Source: Nitrosospira sp.
GTDB taxonomy: Bacteria > Pseudomonadota > Gammaproteobacteria > Burkholderiales > Nitrosomonadaceae
Assembly: GCA_013697655.1 (NCBI GenBank)
Contig: JACCWK010000042.1
Location: 8,051-72,050, forward strand
Reading direction: 5' to 3'
Length of the DNA stretch: 64,000 nt
In this document: piece after piece, positions 9,792 through 60,399 of the stretch
How positions within the stretch are numbered: the first letter of the stretch is position 1
Layout: every line of letters starts with the position of its first letter
Notes under the pieces: generated by a model
What the model was told of the DNA's origin: nothing
What the model saw: only the letters and a program-made list of their open reading frames with translations
The model's database searches: none
Translations under genes and position numbers: made by a program

Positions 9792-10283
9792 ATGAGTAGT
9801 CGTTTCCCCTGGGGTCATATTGTCGCCCTCGCGATCTGGACTACTATCTCCGTTGCAATCTATCTATACTTTGACGCCCGCCAGAAACCAACCATTGCTG
9901 TAGCTGGCGCGGAACTGGTTAGCGGAAAAGTAGCGATCCCGCGATCACGCGATGGACATTACTATGTGAGGGGTAAAATTAACGGCCATCCCGTGGATTT
10001 TATGGTGGACACGGGGGCGAGCACGGTATCGATCAGCCGTGACATCGCGCTAAATGCCCATCTGCCTCGAGGAATGCCTGCTACTTTTCTTACGGCGAAT
10101 GGGCCTGTCAGGGGCGAGATTGTTTCGGGGCAAACTATTGAAGCGGGTGGCATCGTGGTGGAGGGTCTCAGTGTGGGGATCGGTGTTCAGGGGAATGTAG
10201 CGCTGCTTGGACAGAACTTCTTGCGCAAGGTGGATGTTCTCCAGTCAGACGACAAAATGTTACTACGAATCAGGCCCAAATAA
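9792..10283 (+). CDS. Clan AA retropepsin-like aspartic protease, membrane anchored
   Basis: N-terminal TM segment, DGHYYVRGKING, catalytic FMVDTGAS and ALLGQNFL. Confidence 0.9.
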   Translation: MSSRFPWGHIVALAIWTTISVAIYLYFDARQKPTIAVAGAELVSGKVAIPRSRDGHYYVRGKINGHPVDFMVDTGASTVSISRDIALNAHLPRGMPATFLTANGPVRGEIVSGQTIEAGGIVVEGLSVGIGVQGNVALLGQNFLRKVDVLQSDDKMLLRIRPK

Positions 10284-10532
10284 GCTCGGGACTCTGTCCC
10301 AAGCTGGCTCTGCAAGAGTCGCTGCCCTCACAAAACGGCAGGTTAACCAATAACTCCGGCATTGTGAGTATCTCGCTATACGGGTTAGCATCAGCTACCA
10401 TGTCGTCTCTATAAAGAAAAACCGCCATCAGAACTGTGAGATATTTGCTGACTATGCGCTTGGGCGCACCTGCCTTAAAAGAATGTTAAAAGAATGCGCC
10501 AATCTTCCTATTCACCTTTTAAAATAGAAGTC

Positions 10533-52842: not shown

Positions 52843-52927
52843 CCACCAGGCTTGTATCAGGCTTACCCTCAGCCACGCTAAGGACTCCACAATAACAAAA
52901 ATTTGTTGAGATCAAGACTTTCCCCGC

Positions 52928-55900
52928 ATGACCGATATCATAGATAACCGGCAGGAATTGCTTGCCGAGCACGTTTGCAAAATTTTACAGCAAACAGACT
53001 CGGTCAAATTTGCCGTCGGCTATTTCTTTGTGAGCGGGCTTCAGGAAATTCGCCAGCAGTTAACCCATATTTCGGCTATTCGCCTTCTCATCGGTAATCA
53101 ATCCAACCAGGACACCATTGATGCGCTGATGCAGCGAGAGATGCATCCTCAGCGTGCGCAGTCGGTTATCGGCAAACTACAAAACCCCAGGGAGAAAAAA
53201 CGCATTGCGGAAGAGACTGGTAAAGGAGTTCGTGAAGCCCTGTCCATTCCACCCTTGACCGATGAGACCGAAGAATTGCTGGCCGAAATCAAAGAGTGGA
53301 TGGCCTCGGGTAAACTTGAGGTGCGAGTCTACACGAAGGAAAAACTCCATGCTAAAGCCTATCTCTTCGCTTACCCCGAGCAAACTTATGAACAGGGTAT
53401 CGGGATCGTAGGCTCCAGCAACCTCACACTTTCCGGGCTACGGAACAACACGGAGCTCAACGTCCTGGTTCACGGTAATGACAACTTCAAGCAGCTCAAT
53501 ACCTGGTTTGATCGACTCTGGGAGGAAGGAGAACCATTTAACACCAGCTTGATGGAGGAAATCGAGCAGAGCTGGGCAAGCGCTGCTTATACGCCGTGGG
53601 ACATTTATCTCAAAACGCTTTACAAGCTGGTGGAAGATCGCCTTGATTATTCCGACAGCCACGTGCTGCATTGGGATGACAAGTTTCCACCCTTGACGAG
53701 GTTTCAGAAGGTAGCGGTCGACCAAGGCCTGAAAATCCTGCGCGATCACGAAGGTGTGTTCATCTCGGATGTGGTGGGATTGGGTAAAACCTTCGTCGGT
53801 CTTGGAATGCTGAAAAATCTCTATCGCTCCGGGTTAAAGCACCAGATCATCATCTGTCCCAATTCGCTGGAAGAGAATTGGAAGGAAGTTACCCGCGAAT
53901 ATGGGATTTTCCCGGATCTCATTCCCATATCACAAATTTCTGTCGAGAACTCGCCACTGAATAATGCCTGGACACAAAGTGCCGATATCGTACTGATAGA
54001 CGAATCCCACAATTTCCGTAATGCCGATTCACAGCGCTATGAAGCACTGGAGAATTTTTTACGGGGAAAGAAGGTCATCCTGCTGACTGCCACGCCGCGC
54101 AACAATAGCGCCTGGGATATTTACCACCAGCTTCGCTTATTCCAGGATGATGCGACGTCTACTCTCGATATCGGTGCTTACGATAATCTCAAGAAATATT
54201 TCAAGAAAGTAGCTGAGTTGGAAAAAAAATCGCAAGACCAAGGACTGCCTCAGAACCTACGCGATCAAGCGGCAAAAACAGCGGAGCGGATGATCGAACA
54301 TCTTCTGCTACAAGTTCTCATCCGTCGAACCCGCAGCCATATCAGGAAACATTATGCTGACAATTTGATAAACGGCGCACCGATAGAATTTCCCACCCGC
54401 AAACTCAATCGATTCGATTACAGCATAGATGCCACATATAACGGCCTCTATGCAGACATTCTCAAACGAATTTCAGACTTGCACTATGCGCGCTATTCCA
54501 TCGGTCTCTATCTCCAACCGGAGTTGACGGAGCGCCAGCCCTATGCACGCCTGGCGCGGGCCGGCCGTAGCTTACGTGGTCTGATGCGTATTCTGCTGCT
54601 TAAGCGATTTGAATCTTCGGTGGAAGCTTTCCGCCTCACGGTGCAAGGAATGATCCGGATGCACAACCGCTTTCTGGCTGTCCTTGAAGAAGGCTATGTC
54701 GTGTCTGATTCCCGGCTGCTCGATAAACTTGAAACCGAAAACGGAAATCTGGATATAGCATTGCTGGAAGAGGAAGACGTCCGGCGTTATGCCATTGCCG
54801 ATTTCCGCGCAAGCGAATTGGAACAGGATCTGCGGGAAGATTTGAACGTTCTCGGCGAAATTCTTGGCATGGTAAAGAATATAGGCGCGGAGCAGGATGA
54901 TAAACTGCAAACGCTGCTTGCCGCGATGCATGGTGAAACCCTTTCGTGTGAAAAAGTCATTATCTTCACCCAATATTCTGATACCGCACGTTATCTCCAT
55001 GATCATCTCGCGAAGGACATCAGCGATTTGGCGGTGATCGACAGCAAAACCAAAAACAGACTGCAAATCCTGCGCCGTTTTTCCCCTAGATCCAACCGTT
55101 ACACGCTCAAGGACAGCGAGAAAAAGATTCGTGTGGTTGTCGCCACCGACGTGTTTTCCGAAGGCTTGAATCTCCAGGACGCCGCCTGCATCATCAACTA
55201 CGATCTGCATTGGAATCCCGTACGCCTGATTCAACGCGTGGGACGTATAGACCGGATTGGTTCGTGCCATGACATCATCCATATCTACAACTTCTTTCCG
55301 GAAGTTGCACTCGACAAGGGGCTGGGACTCAAGGAACGGCTTGCACGCCGGATTCAGGAAATCCACAACACCATCGGTGAGGATGAAAAGATTCTGGATG
55401 AACATGAACAGCTCAATTCGAATGACATGTATGGAATTTACAGCAATGGCGAGCAATCCGTTGACGAGGAAGATGGTGGCTTCGACATTAACGAAGCTGA
55501 AATACTTATCCGCGATTTGAAAGATAACGAGCCGGAACTGTTTAACCGGGTGCGCAACCTCCCCGACGGCATCCGTGCAGGGCTCGCGTCGGATGTAACG
55601 GGCATCTTTGCATTCTTCGGGGTGGGCAAACGCTATAAACGCATGTACCTGATGAACGAAAAAGGCCAACTCGTTGCTTCGGAACCCGCTGAAATCGTGC
55701 CCTTGCTACGCTGCGACAGCGCTACACCGGGGGAAGCACTGACGCAAACGCACAACCAAGCCGTAGAAGTTGTCCGGCAACTTTTTGCCGAACATATTGA
55801 ACATATTTACCAGAGTCTTTCGCACCCGGTGCTGGAGCCCGAGCAGCACTATACAATCGATCAATTGCGTAAATCACGGCAAGACCTGTTCATCTCGGAT

Positions 55901-56143
55901 AGCCGCAAGAGCCTGCTGGATCACCTTATCAGCGTGGTGAGCCAGCAACAGCCCTCGTATGTGGTTGCTGCGCTACGCAAGCTGAAGAGGGAAAAACGCG
56001 GTGGTGACGACCTGCTGGATGCGGTAGACCACATCGTGCGTCACTTCGAGCTGGATAAACGTCTTGCCGAAAGGCAGGAATATATCCTTGCGCACCCTGT
56101 GTCGAAAATCTTCTGTTCCGAGTCGCTTATCAAGGTCTCCTGA
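52928..56143 (+). CDS. PLD-nuclease domain plus SNF2-family helicase
   Basis: N-terminal PLD-like LHAKAYLF...GSSNLT, Walker A SDVVGLGKT, Walker B LIDESHN, LLTATP, ATDVFSEGLNLQ and WNPVRLIQRVGRIDRIG. Confidence 0.92.
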   Translation: MTDIIDNRQELLAEHVCKILQQTDSVKFAVGYFFVSGLQEIRQQLTHISAIRLLIGNQSNQDTIDALMQREMHPQRAQSVIGKLQNPREKKRIAEETGKGVREALSIPPLTDETEELLAEIKEWMASGKLEVRVYTKEKLHAKAYLFAYPEQTYEQGIGIVGSSNLTLSGLRNNTELNVLVHGNDNFKQLNTWFDRLWEEGEPFNTSLMEEIEQSWASAAYTPWDIYLKTLYKLVEDRLDYSDSHVLHWDDKFPPLTRFQKVAVDQGLKILRDHEGVFISDVVGLGKTFVGLGMLKNLYRSGLKHQIIICPNSLEENWKEVTREYGIFPDLIPISQISVENSPLNNAWTQSADIVLIDESHNFRNADSQRYEALENFLRGKKVILLTATPRNNSAWDIYHQLRLFQDDATSTLDIGAYDNLKKYFKKVAELEKKSQDQGLPQNLRDQAAKTAERMIEHLLLQVLIRRTRSHIRKHYADNLINGAPIEFPTRKLNRFDYSIDATYNGLYADILKRISDLHYARYSIGLYLQPELTERQPYARLARAGRSLRGLMRILLLKRFESSVEAFRLTVQGMIRMHNRFLAVLEEGYVVSDSRLLDKLETENGNLDIALLEEEDVRRYAIADFRASELEQDLREDLNVLGEILGMVKNIGAEQDDKLQTLLAAMHGETLSCEKVIIFTQYSDTARYLHDHLAKDISDLAVIDSKTKNRLQILRRFSPRSNRYTLKDSEKKIRVVVATDVFSEGLNLQDAACIINYDLHWNPVRLIQRVGRIDRIGSCHDIIHIYNFFPEVALDKGLGLKERLARRIQEIHNTIGEDEKILDEHEQLNSNDMYGIYSNGEQSVDEEDGGFDINEAEILIRDLKDNEPELFNRVRNLPDGIRAGLASDVTGIFAFFGVGKRYKRMYLMNEKGQLVASEPAEIVPLLRCDSATPGEALTQTHNQAVEVVRQLFAEHIEHIYQSLSHPVLEPEQHYTIDQLRKSRQDLFISDSRKSLLDHLISVVSQQQPSYVVAALRKLKREKRGGDDLLDAVDHIVRHFELDKRLAERQEYILAHPVSKIFCSESLIKVS

Positions 56144-56151
56144 AACAAGCG

Positions 56152-59100
56152 ATGTCCATCGAAACCAGAATAAAAAATCTCAACGGCCTGGAAGACCTGC
56201 AAAGCTTGCTGGTGGAGGCAATCGGCTTCGAACCGGAAAATCGCGCTGTTTTCTTCGATGACAAACCCGAGTTACAAGCCGCCTACCACCGCCCTGCCGT
56301 GGTTGCGGGCTTGCATGGTTTTTACATACTGGTGCTGCCAACAACCGGTGAAGGCATGCGCAAGACCCGCCAGCGGCAAGCCATTGAAGCGTTGCGTGGC
56401 CGCTACCTCTTCGCCCTGTTTGTTTTTGTCGATCTGAAACAACCTCAACGTGAATGGCATTGGGTGTTTCCAACGCCCGGCCCGGCCACGGGCAGACGCA
56501 CGCTAAGGCGCATGGAAATTGGCAGTAATTCGCGCCTGCATACCATTGCGGAGCGTATCGAACTGCTCAGGAGCAAGCTGCCGGAATGCACCAATCAGGC
56601 AGCCGTTGCCGCCCAGGTACAGGAAGCCTTCGACGTCGAAGCCATCAGTAAGGCGTTTTTCATCGAATACCGGAAACAATATCTTTTATTCAAAACACAG
56701 ATCGTTGCGGATAACCGGGGCAAGCCGTGGGTCGATGATGACAAGAAGATTTCCCGCTATGCCCAGTTGCTGCTGGGCAGGATCATGTTCCTGCACTTCA
56801 TTGAAAAGAAGGGATGGCTCGATGGCAACCGCGACTTCATCCGCGATCTCTTTGAACCATTCCGGCGGAGTGAGCGAAGGGTATTTCATCAGGAAGTACT
56901 GGAACCGCTTTTTTTCCGGGCGTTAGGCAGGGAAGGCGGGCGCAAGACGATTGCCGGTGCGGAATATGCCATTCCATTTCTAAACGGCGGCCTGTTCGAG
57001 GCGCGCGCGGAATTTGCCGAAGACGATCCCCTGTTTGGACCGGTGGTAGCGGATGAACTCTTCGCCGGCCTGTTCGATATGCTCGGGCGCTACAACTTCA
57101 CCGTGGATGAATCCACCCCGCTTGACCAGACGGTGGGCATAGACCCTGAAATGCTCGGCAAGGTATTCGAAAACCTGCTGGAAGCGGAAGCGCGCCACGC
57201 CAGTGGCACCTATTACACCCCGCGCAGCATAGTCGAATATATGTGCCGCGAGATTCTGTTCCATTATTTGCATAGTCACACCGATGTTGCACGGGTGGTT
57301 TTCGATACCCTGCTTGATTGCGCGCTGGATGGCCGCAAGGCGGACATCGAAACTGCTCTGGCGCAGCGGCTGGATGCCGTGCTTGACCGTGTTACGATAC
57401 TCGATCCGGCAGTCGGCTCCGGTGCATTCCTGCTTGGCATGATGCAGGAAATCCTGACGCTCAAGGAAAGCCTCGCCCGCGCGCGGGGAAACAGCGAAGA
57501 GCACATCCGGGCGGAGCGCGCCAAGCGCAAGGCCGTGATCATCCATGAAAGCCTTTACGCCGTGGATATCTCCTTCCCCGCCATCGAAATCGCGCGGCTG
57601 CGGCTGTGGTTGGCGCTGGTGGTGGATGAAACCGGACCCCATCCCTTGCCTAATCTGGATTACCACATCCTGCGCGGCGATACCTTGCAAACCCTGCTGG
57701 ATGGTAAGCCACTATTGCCACCGGGCGCTGGGGCAGGTGGCGTGGGGACGGGTGGCGCAAGCGGGCTTGCACCGGGTGGACAAATACCGTTTCCCATCGC
57801 GGGTACACAAAGAACCCTGGATGACCACCTGCCCAATCCGTATACCGAAACGCTGTTGCGCCATCTGGACGCGCTCTATTCCGCCAACGGAGAGGAAAAA
57901 GTACGGCTACGCCAGGAAATCCGCGCCGTGCTTACCGCCATGATCGAAACGTATTGGATAAAAAGCGAAAAAAACCTGCAAGGCCGCGCGAAGGATTTGC
58001 TCGAGGCCACGCTGGATGGGAACCCGCAAAAACTCTCCAGGCCCAAGCTCAAAGAATATCTGGCAACCGAGGCGATGCTGGGCCGTATCGAGGAGGATCG
58101 GCGCCACTTGCGCGAATCCCGCGAGCAAAACGAGGAACTCAAGCTCCCGTTCACGCCGTTGCATCTTTATTTCGCCGAAGTATTCAGCGGTGACAATCCC
58201 GGCTTCGACATCGTCATCGCCAATCCGCCTTATGTCCGGCACGAGAAAATCAAGGACATTAAGCCGCAACTGGAAACTGAGTTTCCCGATTTTTACTGCA
58301 GTACCGCCGACCTCTACACCTATTTCTACCGCCGCGGGCTGGAACTGCTGAAACGCGGCGGACATCTCTGTTTCATTGCCCCGAACAAATTCATGCGCGC
58401 CGGTTACGGCGAGAATACCCGCAAACTGTTGACAAGCGAGGCGATACCGCGGGTCATTATCGATTTCGGCGATACACCAATTTTTGACGCGACCACATAC
58501 CCCGCGATTTTATTGATAGAAAAAACGCGGCTAGCGGGCCCCATCACTGCCGCCGTTATCAAAAACGCCGCCGACGTCGAGCGTATCGGCGAAGCCGTCA
58601 GCGAGCGCGGTTTTTCCATGCTGCCGCAGGATTTGCGCGTGCAAGGCTGGACGCTGGAATCCCCGGCGGTGCTCGCGTTGATGACGAAGCTGCGCTCCGC
58701 TGGCCAACCGCTAGGCAAATACGTGCAAGGCCGATTTTATCGTGGCATTCTGACCGGCTTCAATAAGGCCTTTGTCATAGACGCTACCACGCGCGCGCAG
58801 TTGGTTGCGGAAGACGCCAACAGCGTCGATCTCATCAAGCCTTGGCTCAGAGGCCGCGACATTCGTAAATGGAAGGCAGAATGGGCGGGGTTGTACATCC
58901 TCGCTATTGGCAGCAGCGCCAATCGGCAATGGCCGTGGTCGGACGCCGATTCCAAGGCCGAAGCGGAACGTATCTTCGCGGCAGCTTATCCTGCTATCTA
59001 TGAGCATCTGCGCAGGGAGGGGGATGCCTTTGCCGAGTGGAAACATACGGACAAGAAAAAACAGCAAGGTCTCTACAGCCGGGATGACCAAGGAAAGTAT

Positions 59101-60369
59101 TGGTGGGAACTGCGCTCGTGTGCCTACTATGCTCAATTCGAACAACCGAAGATTGTTTACCCAGATATTGCCCAAACCCCGAAATTTACTTGGGATGCGA
59201 GCGGCGCATTGTTGGGAAACACTGCTTACATCATTCCGACTGACGAGGTTTGGTTGATAGGTTTGTTAAATTCCAAATTGATTTGGTGGTTCTATTTAAA
59301 TCTTAGCTCGATCATTCGTGGCGGCTTTGTCAGGTTTATCGCACAATATATGGAACAGCTCCCCGTTTTGTCGGCCACCCCTGCTGAGAAAACCCCCATC
59401 ATCAGGCGTGTTGAAACCATCCTCGCTGACCCATCAAGTCCCGACGTGCCACGCCTGGAAGCGGAAATCGACGAGCTGGTTTTCGACCTCTACAATCTGA
59501 CCAAAGCTGAAAGACAGCTTGTCCTTGCCGCTCGCATCGAGTCATGCGAAGATGAAGCCCCTGAAGAAAATGACAATGACACCGAAACAACTTCAACAGC
59601 TCGATCAGCACCTGAATCAATGGCGAACCAGCCATCCCGATGCCGAAAGCCTGCGGGCAGCATATCGCCAACGGGTGCTGAAATTCACCCTGAGTTCGAT
59701 GGCGCTGGAAAACGAACCGGTCAATCCCGAGCGGCTGACGAAGCTGCTCAATCAACCGGCCTGCTAGACGCTACCCGCGAACTGGCGACGGCTGGCGGGC
59801 CACTTGCATATAGCGAAGTAGCCGAGTGTCTGGCGGTAAGCATTGCGCGCTGCCTTGGCGCGCTGCTTGAAAACCTGCCCGAAGACATTCGCATTACCCC
59901 GGAGTGGATTTGCGACATGCACCACCGCGTCGCCAGTGAGTTATTTCCGCAATGGGCAGGCCGTTTCCGCATCACCGATGTCCAGGTAGGCACTCATCTG
60001 CCCCCACCCGGCCATGAGATTGCGGCTCACATCAAGAATTTCTGTTTGGATCTGGAAGAACGCATGCGCCACCTTCACGGCGCGGAATCCATCGCCGCGC
60101 TGCTGGCATGGGCAGACTGGCGCTTCCAGTGGATACACCCTTTCAAGGATTTTAACGGCAGAACGGGCCGAATTCTGCTCGTCGCCTTGGCCTATAAACT
60201 CGCGCTCCCACCGGTTGACCCGGCCGCTACCCGTGAGTCCGGCAAATTCGCGTACTTTGCCGCGCTACGTGCGGCCGACGCAGGCGATCTCACTACACTG
60301 AACGATCTGTGGCTTGATTTGTTGCAGGGTGAAGCAACCATGCAACAGAATAATGTTGCAGAGACCTAA
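56152..60369 (+). CDS. Eco57I-like (Type IIG-like) N6-adenine methyltransferase/TRD protein reading through into a C-terminal Fic domain
   Basis: FLNGGLF, IDPEMLGKVFENL, YYTPR, motif I LDPAVGSGAF (about 57400), motif IV NPPY (58222-58233), a TaqI-C-like TRD, the usual terminal helix EAEIDELVFDLYNLT, then the Fic motif HPFKDFNGRTGR at 60136-60171. Confidence 0.9.
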   Translation: MSIETRIKNLNGLEDLQSLLVEAIGFEPENRAVFFDDKPELQAAYHRPAVVAGLHGFYILVLPTTGEGMRKTRQRQAIEALRGRYLFALFVFVDLKQPQREWHWVFPTPGPATGRRTLRRMEIGSNSRLHTIAERIELLRSKLPECTNQAAVAAQVQEAFDVEAISKAFFIEYRKQYLLFKTQIVADNRGKPWVDDDKKISRYAQLLLGRIMFLHFIEKKGWLDGNRDFIRDLFEPFRRSERRVFHQEVLEPLFFRALGREGGRKTIAGAEYAIPFLNGGLFEARAEFAEDDPLFGPVVADELFAGLFDMLGRYNFTVDESTPLDQTVGIDPEMLGKVFENLLEAEARHASGTYYTPRSIVEYMCREILFHYLHSHTDVARVVFDTLLDCALDGRKADIETALAQRLDAVLDRVTILDPAVGSGAFLLGMMQEILTLKESLARARGNSEEHIRAERAKRKAVIIHESLYAVDISFPAIEIARLRLWLALVVDETGPHPLPNLDYHILRGDTLQTLLDGKPLLPPGAGAGGVGTGGASGLAPGGQIPFPIAGTQRTLDDHLPNPYTETLLRHLDALYSANGEEKVRLRQEIRAVLTAMIETYWIKSEKNLQGRAKDLLEATLDGNPQKLSRPKLKEYLATEAMLGRIEEDRRHLRESREQNEELKLPFTPLHLYFAEVFSGDNPGFDIVIANPPYVRHEKIKDIKPQLETEFPDFYCSTADLYTYFYRRGLELLKRGGHLCFIAPNKFMRAGYGENTRKLLTSEAIPRVIIDFGDTPIFDATTYPAILLIEKTRLAGPITAAVIKNAADVERIGEAVSERGFSMLPQDLRVQGWTLESPAVLALMTKLRSAGQPLGKYVQGRFYRGILTGFNKAFVIDATTRAQLVAEDANSVDLIKPWLRGRDIRKWKAEWAGLYILAIGSSANRQWPWSDADSKAEAERIFAAAYPAIYEHLRREGDAFAEWKHTDKKKQQGLYSRDDQGKYWWELRSCAYYAQFEQPKIVYPDIAQTPKFTWDASGALLGNTAYIIPTDEVWLIGLLNSKLIWWFYLNLSSIIRGGFVRFIAQYMEQLPVLSATPAEKTPIIRRVETILADPSSPDVPRLEAEIDELVFDLYNLTKAERQLVLAARIESCEDEAPEENDNDTETTSTARSAPESMANQPSRCRKPAGSISPTGAEIHPEFDGAGKRTGQSRAADEAAQSTGLLDATRELATAGGPLAYSEVAECLAVSIARCLGALLENLPEDIRITPEWICDMHHRVASELFPQWAGRFRITDVQVGTHLPPPGHEIAAHIKNFCLDLEERMRHLHGAESIAALLAWADWRFQWIHPFKDFNGRTGRILLVALAYKLALPPVDPAATRESGKFAYFAALRAADAGDLTTLNDLWLDLLQGEATMQQNNVAET
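59576..59767 (+). CDS. FicA/VbhA-like antitoxin nested in an alternate frame
   Basis: 63 aa MTPKQLQQLDQHLNQWRTSHPDAESLRAAYRQRVLKFTLSSMALENEPVNPERLTKLLNQPAC, with the Fic-inhibitory (S/T)xxxE(G/N) motif SMALEN at 59696-59713. It ends at the start of the Fic domain. Alternative ATGs lie at 59552 and 59570. Confidence 0.8.
   Translation: MTPKQLQQLDQHLNQWRTSHPDAESLRAAYRQRVLKFTLSSMALENEPVNPERLTKLLNQPAC
59761..60369 (+). CDS. Fic-domain toxin portion (202 aa), possibly also translated alone from a CTG
   Basis: Fic core ITPEWICDMHH...WAGRFR...HPFKDFNGRTGR...YFAALRAADAGD, in the same frame as the methyltransferase ORF. Confidence 0.75.
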   Translation: MLDATRELATAGGPLAYSEVAECLAVSIARCLGALLENLPEDIRITPEWICDMHHRVASELFPQWAGRFRITDVQVGTHLPPPGHEIAAHIKNFCLDLEERMRHLHGAESIAALLAWADWRFQWIHPFKDFNGRTGRILLVALAYKLALPPVDPAATRESGKFAYFAALRAADAGDLTTLNDLWLDLLQGEATMQQNNVAET

Positions 60370-60399
60370 ATTAGCCAGATACCATGGTGTAATAGCCCT

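Follow-up and report, generated by a model that had tools for sequence, protein, structure and literature searches.

A Fic domain at the end of a type IIG-like methylase in Nitrosospira, with a candidate antitoxin gene nested out of frame in the linker

How is a Fic toxin made when the methylase in front of it has no stop and the toxin has no start of its own? This question was raised by a locus in a 64,000-nucleotide stretch of Nitrosospira sp. DNA (contig JACCWK010000042.1, positions 8,051 to 72,050; the whole stretch is called the window), where a DNA methyltransferase runs on into a Fic domain and a small antitoxin-like frame overlaps the junction. The original prediction held that the toxin had lost a strong start at the antitoxin stop and is now made as a fusion, from a weak CTG codon or hardly at all, either after a recent accident or as a selected fusion. 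Comparison of the locus with its relatives makes it quite probable that methylase, linker and Fic form a genuine, conserved fusion, that an antitoxin of the VbhA/FicA type is nested in the +1 frame of the linker DNA and made by internal initiation, and that the toxin needs no start of its own. The missing stop and the missing start would be the normal state of this Fic clade.

The fusion frame and the nested antitoxin frame

The methylase, the linker and the Fic domain are read in a single open reading frame (ORF; Table 1). In its product, Pfam matched Eco57I at residues 467-778 (E 6e-34), TaqI_C at 897-1072 (E 1.4e-16) and Fic at 1248-1346, and N6_Mtase was matched as well. An NPPY motif was read within ..DIVIANPPYVRHE.., and the best PADLOC match of the methylase part was to the type IIG models (REase_MTase_IIG, E 2e-116). 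By sequence, the methylase part is type IIG-like, with a gamma-class N6-adenine methyltransferase core carrying NPPY and a C-terminal TaqI_C target-recognition domain. The Pfam scan gave no nuclease family in residues 1-150. From the terminal methylase helix LYNLTKAERQLV to Leu1204 (CTG) 80 codons follow with no stop, as had been predicted. Unfused methylase homologues stop 5-25 residues past this helix, so relative to them the stop is truly missing in the window. The homologues thus bore out the expected stop; the ATG expected at the toxin start was found in one short-overlap clade only, described below.

The antitoxin ORF reads MTPKQLQQLDQHLNQWRTSHPDAESLRAAYRQRVLKFTLSSMALENEPVNPERLTKLLNQPAC from the ATG at 59576, and further in-frame ATGs lie at 59552 and 59570. 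It contains a sequence that fits [S/T]xxxE[G/N], the inhibitory-helix motif of Fic antitoxins (PMC5033356), and it ends with GCC TGC TAG at 59759-59767. Pfam and NCBIfam scans gave no family name for the antitoxin. No ATG, GTG or TTG stands at the start of the toxin in the window, and after the ATG at 59620 the next one in frame lies inside the Fic core (..CDMHH..). All positions given in the original prediction proved correct.

The structure of fusion residues 1104-1405 was modelled with AlphaFold (AF2) with 56 homologues as input. The Fic core had a pLDDT above 90 and the last methylase helices were confident, and model residues 29-97 (nt 59545-59751), which overlap the antitoxin, had a pLDDT below 50 and no secondary structure. 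The linker is therefore predicted to be disordered. Foldseek with the Fic core returned FICD as the best match (E 4e-10), and EcFicT/EcFicA (5jff) and VbhT/VbhA (3zc7) with a TMt of about 0.72; FICD, EcFicT and VbhT all had a probability of 1.00. By sequence, the closest solved relative was again FICD (E 2e-16), and VbhT was marginal (E 0.07). PADLOC matched the Fic tail to PDC-S04 (E 1.5e-19) and SoFic (E 1.7e-15). The model thus predicts a Fic fold for the C-terminal domain. Compared with the canonical HxFx(D/E)GNGRxxR, the FIC motif has the His, Phe, Asp, Asn, second Gly and both Arg residues, and the first Gly is replaced by Phe.

Table 1. Features of the locus, with positions in the window
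Feature	Positions	Strand	Basis
Partner gene, PLD (HKD) nuclease domain fused to SNF2 helicase, 1071 aa	52928-56143	+	Pfam PLDc_2, SNF2-rel_dom, Helicase_C
Methyltransferase, linker and Fic, one ORF of 1405 codons	56152-60369	+	ORF reading, Pfam
Terminal helix of the methylase, LYNLTKAERQLV	59488-59523	+	Sequence; helix in the structure model
Linker, residues 1132-1203, CEDEAPEENDND...QSTG, about 72 residues, overprinted on the antitoxin gene	59545-59760	+	Disorder prediction, codon entropy
Candidate nested antitoxin, 63 aa, MTPKQLQQLDQHLNQWRT...LLNQPAC-stop, +1 frame relative to the fusion frame	59576-59767	+	ORF reading
ATG of the fusion frame, from antitoxin Gln-Trp (CAA-TGG); possible internal start of a free 249-aa Fic	59620-59622	+	Sequence
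Inhibitory-helix motif S-M-A-L-E-N of the antitoxin	59696-59713	+	Sequence; fits [S/T]xxxE[G/N]
CTG (Leu1204), candidate weak start of the original prediction; Leu for a conserved Pro	59761-59763	+	Comparison
Fic domain, residues 1204-1405	59761-60366	+	Pfam Fic E 1e-12 (above cut-off), AF2, Foldseek
Antitoxin stop TAG, inside the Leu-Asp codons (CTA GAC) of the Fic frame	59765-59767	+	Sequence; +4 to the Fic N-terminus in most loci
FIC motif, HPFKDFNGRTGR	60136-60171	+	Sequence reading

Relatives of the fusion and selection on the two frames

Homologues were searched with fusion residues 700-1405, and a separate search was limited to the Fic end. Full-length fusions were found at 79% identity (P0003, a Nitrosospira metagenome-assembled genome in NCBI), 70% (P0004, a Logan run), 64% (P0005) and 54% (P0006; the last two from ENA). 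These independent assemblies all retain the frame, and the sequencing error considered in the original prediction is therefore excluded. At the hisD/hisC site occupied in the window, the same pair of helicase and methylase-Fic genes was also found in P0003 and P0004 (loci L090 and L088). In P0006 (L089) the helicase again precedes the fusion, at another site. In that locus a 61-aa gene without a Pfam match (10274-10459) follows the fusion gene; the window lacks an ORF of this kind.

The fusion architecture occurred in two further methylase subfamilies; P0060-P0097, of 1343-1365 aa, form a second methylase subfamily with the same Fic tail. With the Fic end as query, about 50 clusters were returned whose proteins carry this Fic and have 773 aa or more, the most distant with 45% Fic identity. 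Eco57I/N6_Mtase/TaqI_C domains are present in nearly all of them and an HSDR_N nuclease domain in some, and their public names are 'Fic family protein' or 'Eco57I ... methylase'. In a search of a representative library, many distant Fic proteins had N-terminal extensions of 85-145 residues.

Genomes were then scanned with a Fic-core alignment. This yielded 80 loci (Fic identity 47-80%) in Nitrosomonadales, Gallionellaceae, Thiobacillus, Rhodocyclales, Methylococcaceae, Nitrospirota, Nitrospinota, Brocadiaceae and others. Almost all had an antitoxin-like ORF in the same +1 frame with the same end relative to the Fic core, and the FIC motif HPFKDFNGRxGR with its Phe was invariant in all 80. Three states were distinguished. 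In the short-overlap state, one well-supported Nitrospira/Brocadia clade of 13-14 loci, the toxin starts from an ATG of its own that lies some 10 codons ahead of the core (M.EE.G.LGSTRSFET), and the toxin gene overlaps only the last antitoxin codons. In the extended state, with about 29 loci, the Fic frame is open for 80-170 codons upstream and crosses the entire antitoxin. In the fused state, with 28 loci, the frame runs on into a large upstream protein, which was an Eco57I-type methylase in 20 cases, HsdS-like in 5, and a Schlafen/AlbA_2 protein, a P-type ATPase and an unknown protein in one case each. One HsdS-Fic gene (L026) has an HSDR_N_2+N6_Mtase gene directly upstream. In the Fic tree the extended and the fused loci are interleaved, and at least 11 changes are needed for the methylase-fused label.

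Where the toxin is not fused, its frame begins with an ATG that precedes the core by 76-100 codons and the antitoxin start as well. This ATG usually follows the preceding stop by 0-3 codons and often has a Shine-Dalgarno (SD) sequence; six Gallionellaceae loci share the N-terminus MSKDIEKPD. One bearer of this unfused nested form is the cultured Sulfurisoma sediminicola BSN1 (L040). The antitoxin is thus nested in the toxin gene even where there is no fusion. Outside the short-overlap clade, zero relatives start the toxin at the antitoxin stop, and the toxin frame crosses the antitoxin, which speaks against the proposed loss of a strong start there. The proposed weak CTG start fared no better. 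The codon at 59761 is CCG or CCC (Pro, 'STRPLDATREL') in nearly all relatives, including the two nearest, the congeners G018 and G022, which have CCG; in this comparison the CTG is a lineage-specific Pro-to-Leu change.

The antitoxin ORF was undamaged in all fused loci examined, L088-L090 included. Gene callers never list it, as was checked in the annotations of these three loci. Its start is conserved in most loci as the Met of M[TN]PKQLQQLD, 15 codons ahead of an invariant Trp, and its inhibitory motif is kept as S.A.E[NRQG] in about 75 loci, some relatives having R or Q after the E. Most loci have a GGAG 8-11 nt upstream of the start, for example gaaGGAGaatgacggccATG within Nitrospira fusion genes, and the SD duplex energy at antitoxin starts had a median of -4.8 kcal/mol, compared with -2.55 kcal/mol at random positions within ORFs. 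The GGAG element reads E-E-N or Q-E-N in the linker frame, which explains a small conserved patch in the linker. A sigma-70-like match, TCGACG-17-TACAAT, was found at 59468-59496, 55-80 nt upstream of the nested ATGs, and its -10 element falls in the ..CTC TAC AAT.. codons for the LYN of the terminal methylase helix. This was the one match in a search for an internal antitoxin promoter, a number not above that in shuffled sequences. It could serve the antitoxin and hisC and is a mere lead.

Stop avoidance in the linker frame was examined at the third positions of the antitoxin codons. For a stop to arise in the Fic frame, an antitoxin codon must end in T and the next one must begin with AA, AG or GA. 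In the extended and fused loci, T was found at none of 686 such positions, compared with 18-19% at other third positions, whereas in the short-overlap clade, which served as control, it was found at 38 of 161, compared with 28% elsewhere. In the betaproteobacterial subset these positions had C 121, G 179, A 9 and T 0 times, and 14 of the 16 columns varied among C, G and A and never had T. Substitutions thus do occur at these columns, just never to T. The antitoxin was also resampled with synonymous codons according to each locus's own codon usage. Outside the short-overlap clade the Fic frame was open in 58 of 63 loci against a mean expectation of 0.10, and inside it in 1 of 12. Genomes of 39-47% GC were also open, with an expectation below 0.01. 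For the window alone the frame stayed open in 8.5% of the trials, as the original prediction had cautioned that an open stretch of 80 codons can occur by chance. This value is not decisive; the openness of 58 of 63 related loci is.

In 33 loci, antitoxin codon positions 1, 2 and 3 had an entropy of 0.56, 0.47 and 0.97, respectively; the second, which varies least, coincides with the third position of linker codons. Such values are those of a gene that is read in the antitoxin frame, so that the protein under conservation is the antitoxin, and the linker frame is just kept open. From the antitoxin codon pattern and the stop avoidance in the linker, both frames appear to be under selection across divergent relatives. 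The recurrent fusions and the stop avoidance also support that part of the original prediction which has the toxin made as a selected fusion. That such a fusion would bring Fic to methylation-target DNA, as the original prediction suggested, is a conjecture.

Alternative readings and the history of the his site

A free Fic protein could be the real product, with translation starting inside the linker at the ATG at 59620 or the CTG at 59761 and the read-through from the methylase being incidental. All relatives have an ATG or GTG at the position equivalent to 59620, the congener locus L008 (G022) retains only this type of start, and free and fused products could coexist. However, this codon is a by-product of the antitoxin Gln-Trp and becomes GTG when Gln is CAG, so that its conservation is automatic, and no SD sequence was found upstream of the ATG at 59620. 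The frame is also open upstream of it, across the first 15 antitoxin codons and beyond, in the same 58 of 63 loci; the unfused loci start 76-100 codons upstream, and the CTG is Pro in relatives. A ribosome in the methylase frame finds no stop and would have to make the fusion regardless. The ATG at 59620 may yield some free Fic, which the data do not require, and we regard free Fic as the real product as improbable. Far less credit is given to a recent accident or artefact, in which a stop behind the methylase helix disappeared from this genome or a frame error entered the assembly. The early stops of unfused methylases, the two congeners with only antitoxin and Fic at this site and the chance of an open frame in the window alone would fit such a pseudo-fusion. 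But independent assemblies with identities of 79, 70, 64 and 54% show the fusion as well, together with the helicase of the window, and in two of them it occupies the same his site; the module is also carried by HsdS subunits and two more subfamilies of methylases, and stops are avoided in the linker frame.

A programmed -1 frameshift near the antitoxin end would instead join the two frames into one Fic protein of the class II kind that carries the inhibitory helix at its N-terminus. The closest solved relative, FICD, is such a class II protein, the antitoxin and the Fic core are collinear with this architecture, and the frame relation and the +4 stop position are conserved. No slippery heptamer was seen by eye in ..CTCAATCAACCGGCCTGCTAG.. 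or in the relatives, though, and the slip explains neither the openness of the Fic frame along the entire antitoxin nor the upstream position of the toxin ATGs; the control clade has an ordinary toxin ATG. We consider this reading just as implausible as the accident. The least credible reading, to which we give almost no weight, takes the open linker frame as a by-product of base composition or of the antitoxin amino-acid sequence, without selection for translation. GC-rich DNA has few stops in alternative frames, and for some loci an expected probability of 0.3-0.5 for an open frame was obtained. This reading does not account for the complete lack of T where a stop would arise when neighbouring positions have 16-19%, nor for the open loci of low GC content, nor for the control clade, in which stops occur at the expected rate.

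Several observations weigh against a conserved fusion with a nested antitoxin. The window's own SD sequence before the ATG at 59576 is weak (GAAGAAAA, duplex energy about 0), unlike the GGAG of most relatives. The loci are phylogenetically related and the counts overstate the independent events; selection is argued despite this kinship by the contrast to the sister clade and by the variation at the critical columns. Stops interrupt the linker frame in five loci that do not belong to the control clade (L009, L010, L012, L018 and L060), with an antitoxin and a Fic core that look intact; in such cases the toxin may sometimes be silent or start elsewhere. With Phe for the first Gly (HPFKDFNGR), AMPylation by the Fic domain is not assured. 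The accidental-looking ATPase partner of L031 indicates that fusions can arise without function. Finally, the Fic trees leave the window/P0003, L008, P0004, P0005 and the Sulfuricella group as a polytomy and do not order the changes between fusion and antitoxin-Fic pair.

Some of these loci have features of their own. In L031 (2989-6564) the Fic module with an intact nested antitoxin stands in frame at the end of a complete P-type cation ATPase (1192 aa), which looks like an accidental graft or an assembly chimera. L009, L010, L012 and L018 (Sulfuricella/Gallionella) have 1-4 linker-frame stops and no obvious toxin start and may represent silenced toxins with retained antitoxins. As for the motif, the invariant Phe may mean that the Fic chemistry differs from plain AMPylation, and this variant could mark a subfamily with a different co-substrate.

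In the congeners G018 and G022 only the antitoxin and Fic were found between hisD and hisC, and they are homologous to the window from about 59545 onwards, where the linker starts. In G018 (L002/L043, 59-882; L007, 1300-1580) the methylase is absent from the site and the module is decaying: GAA has become TAA in the antitoxin, and the Fic core has lost 1 nt (CCCCCA to CCCCA). In G022 (L008) everything upstream of the linker is lost and 1 nt is deleted near the antitoxin start. Pieces of the leader, LVLAAR..SCEDE, persist in the unfused loci L011, L013 and L015, and they also end the unfused methylase P0007 (..ERQLVLSAQATESVDDADELAVE-stop). The fusions at 54-70% identity with the same partner, the leader remnants and the decay in G018 favour an ancestral fusion followed by deletions over a fresh fusion. 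From these sequences we infer that the G022 and G018 copies are deletion derivatives.

The cassette, its possible function and related systems

The fusion gene follows the gene of the PLD-SNF2 protein after a gap of 8 nt. Pfam and PADLOC both place the PLD nuclease on the helicase polypeptide, whose best PADLOC match was C3a139 'HKD+Snf2' (E 3e-87). The pair is flanked by hisG-hisD and hisC-hisB-hisH-hisA, and only 30 nt separate the end of the fusion gene from hisC. In at least three lineages with 70-79% identity (the window, L088 and L090), hisD and hisC are thus separated by a cassette of 7.5 kb (52843-60399) that interrupts the his operon. No integrase or transposase genes were called in the flanks of L088 and L090 or among the scanned neighbours in the window. 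Membership in DISARM was rejected, since DrmA and DrmB were lacking, the eight upstream ORFs scanned gave no PADLOC match and the flanks are his genes; the DrmD and DrmMI scores were far weaker than those for HKD+Snf2 and type IIG. The methylase of the window is near-identical to that of P0003 over the first ~740 residues and again in the linker and Fic, and it differs strongly in the target-recognition part at about residues 1000-1100 (58900-59400). This looks like a swapped specificity domain.

In the proposed mechanism, a single mRNA would be read in two ways, as the methylase-linker-Fic polypeptide and, in the other frame and from an internal ribosome-binding site, as the antitoxin. The toxin would need no start of its own because the ribosome would reach it at the C-terminal end of the methylase. 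Glu45 of the antitoxin would block productive nucleotide binding at the Fic active site, by analogy to class I Fic biology (PMC5033356). The PLD-SNF2 helicase, the methylase-Fic and the antitoxin may form a restriction-like defence system, with Fic as an abortive-infection or addiction effector that is tethered to the DNA-recognition subunit and released when the antitoxin supply fails. Such a suicide or addiction effector is suggested by the repeated grafting of Fic onto target-recognition polypeptides, the PADLOC defence listing of stand-alone Fic and the PLD-SNF2 partner. More tentatively, the module may be a 'fusion-ready' cassette in which a stop-free frame for a disordered tether overprints the antitoxin gene. 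Its toxin would be expressed only as the tail of a recipient ORF, by preference a DNA-recognition polypeptide of restriction-modification, its nesting would keep the toxin DNA from being inherited or transcribed apart from the antitoxin DNA, and its Fic would serve as a guard or suicide effector fired when a phage shuts off host expression or attacks the complex. We think this possible and rather less than likely.

In class I FicTA pairs the antitoxin neutralises the toxicity, and the target is DNA gyrase or topoisomerase IV. The locus resembles these pairs (VbhT/VbhA, FicT/FicA, EcFicT/EcFicA) in having a small separate protein with an inhibitory helix beside a Fic core of about 200 residues. 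In those pairs a gene of its own, placed immediately before the toxin gene, encodes the antitoxin (PMC5033356); in the present family the antitoxin sits out of frame within the toxin ORF, and the toxin forms the C-terminal domain of a methylase or HsdS. Class II Fic proteins such as FICD/HYPE are closest by sequence and fold and have the inhibitory helix N-terminal of the core on the DNA as well, but in the same polypeptide, whereas here it lies in another reading frame with its own stop. SoFic and the PADLOC candidate PDC-S04 are likewise Fic proteins implicated or proposed in phage defence. SoFic differs in being a class II protein of about 370 aa without a methylase fusion, and its small antitoxin AS1 is encoded by a separate gene downstream (PMC12249575).

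The partner proteins resemble type IIG/Eco57I-MmeI enzymes with Eco57I, N6_Mtase, TaqI_C and NPPY, some with HSDR_N, and others resemble the type I subunit HsdS. Described type IIG members end shortly after the C-terminal helix, whereas the enzyme of the window continues and is paired with a PLD-SNF2 protein. To our knowledge no described type IIG or HsdS member carries a toxin domain. The anticodon nuclease PrrC is a suicide RNase that is physically associated with the EcoprrI type I restriction complex and kept silent by it. It may serve as a working analogy for a toxin tethered to a DNA-recognition subunit, but it is a separate protein, an RNase, and has no protein antitoxin. Long same-strand overlaps are rare in bacteria and are usually doubted; for the present one, the comparative evidence is strong in both frames. 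A synthetic counterpart is the 'entangled' relE-in-ilvA, an overprinted pair in which a gene likewise sits wholly within another frame and the younger frame is disordered (bioRxiv 10.1101/2023.02.27.530340). Our case differs in that the pair is a natural toxin and antitoxin and that the older frame, the antitoxin, is the small nested one. A literature search of partial coverage found class I FicTA, SoFic/AS1 and the synthetic entangled genes, and a nested FicA or a methylase-Fic fusion was not described in it.

The antitoxin was absent from all gene calls that we saw, so that annotation and the finders of toxin-antitoxin and defence systems score these loci as 'Fic family protein' or 'methylase' with an orphan toxin. 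The locus would represent a natural, widely conserved and complete gene nested out of frame in another bacterial gene, the two products being a toxin and its antidote. With toxicity as a simple genetic read-out, the pair would lend itself to studies of dual coding and internal initiation. That Fic was joined repeatedly to methylases and HsdS suggests an uncharacterised link between restriction-modification and an abortive infection of the AMPylation type.

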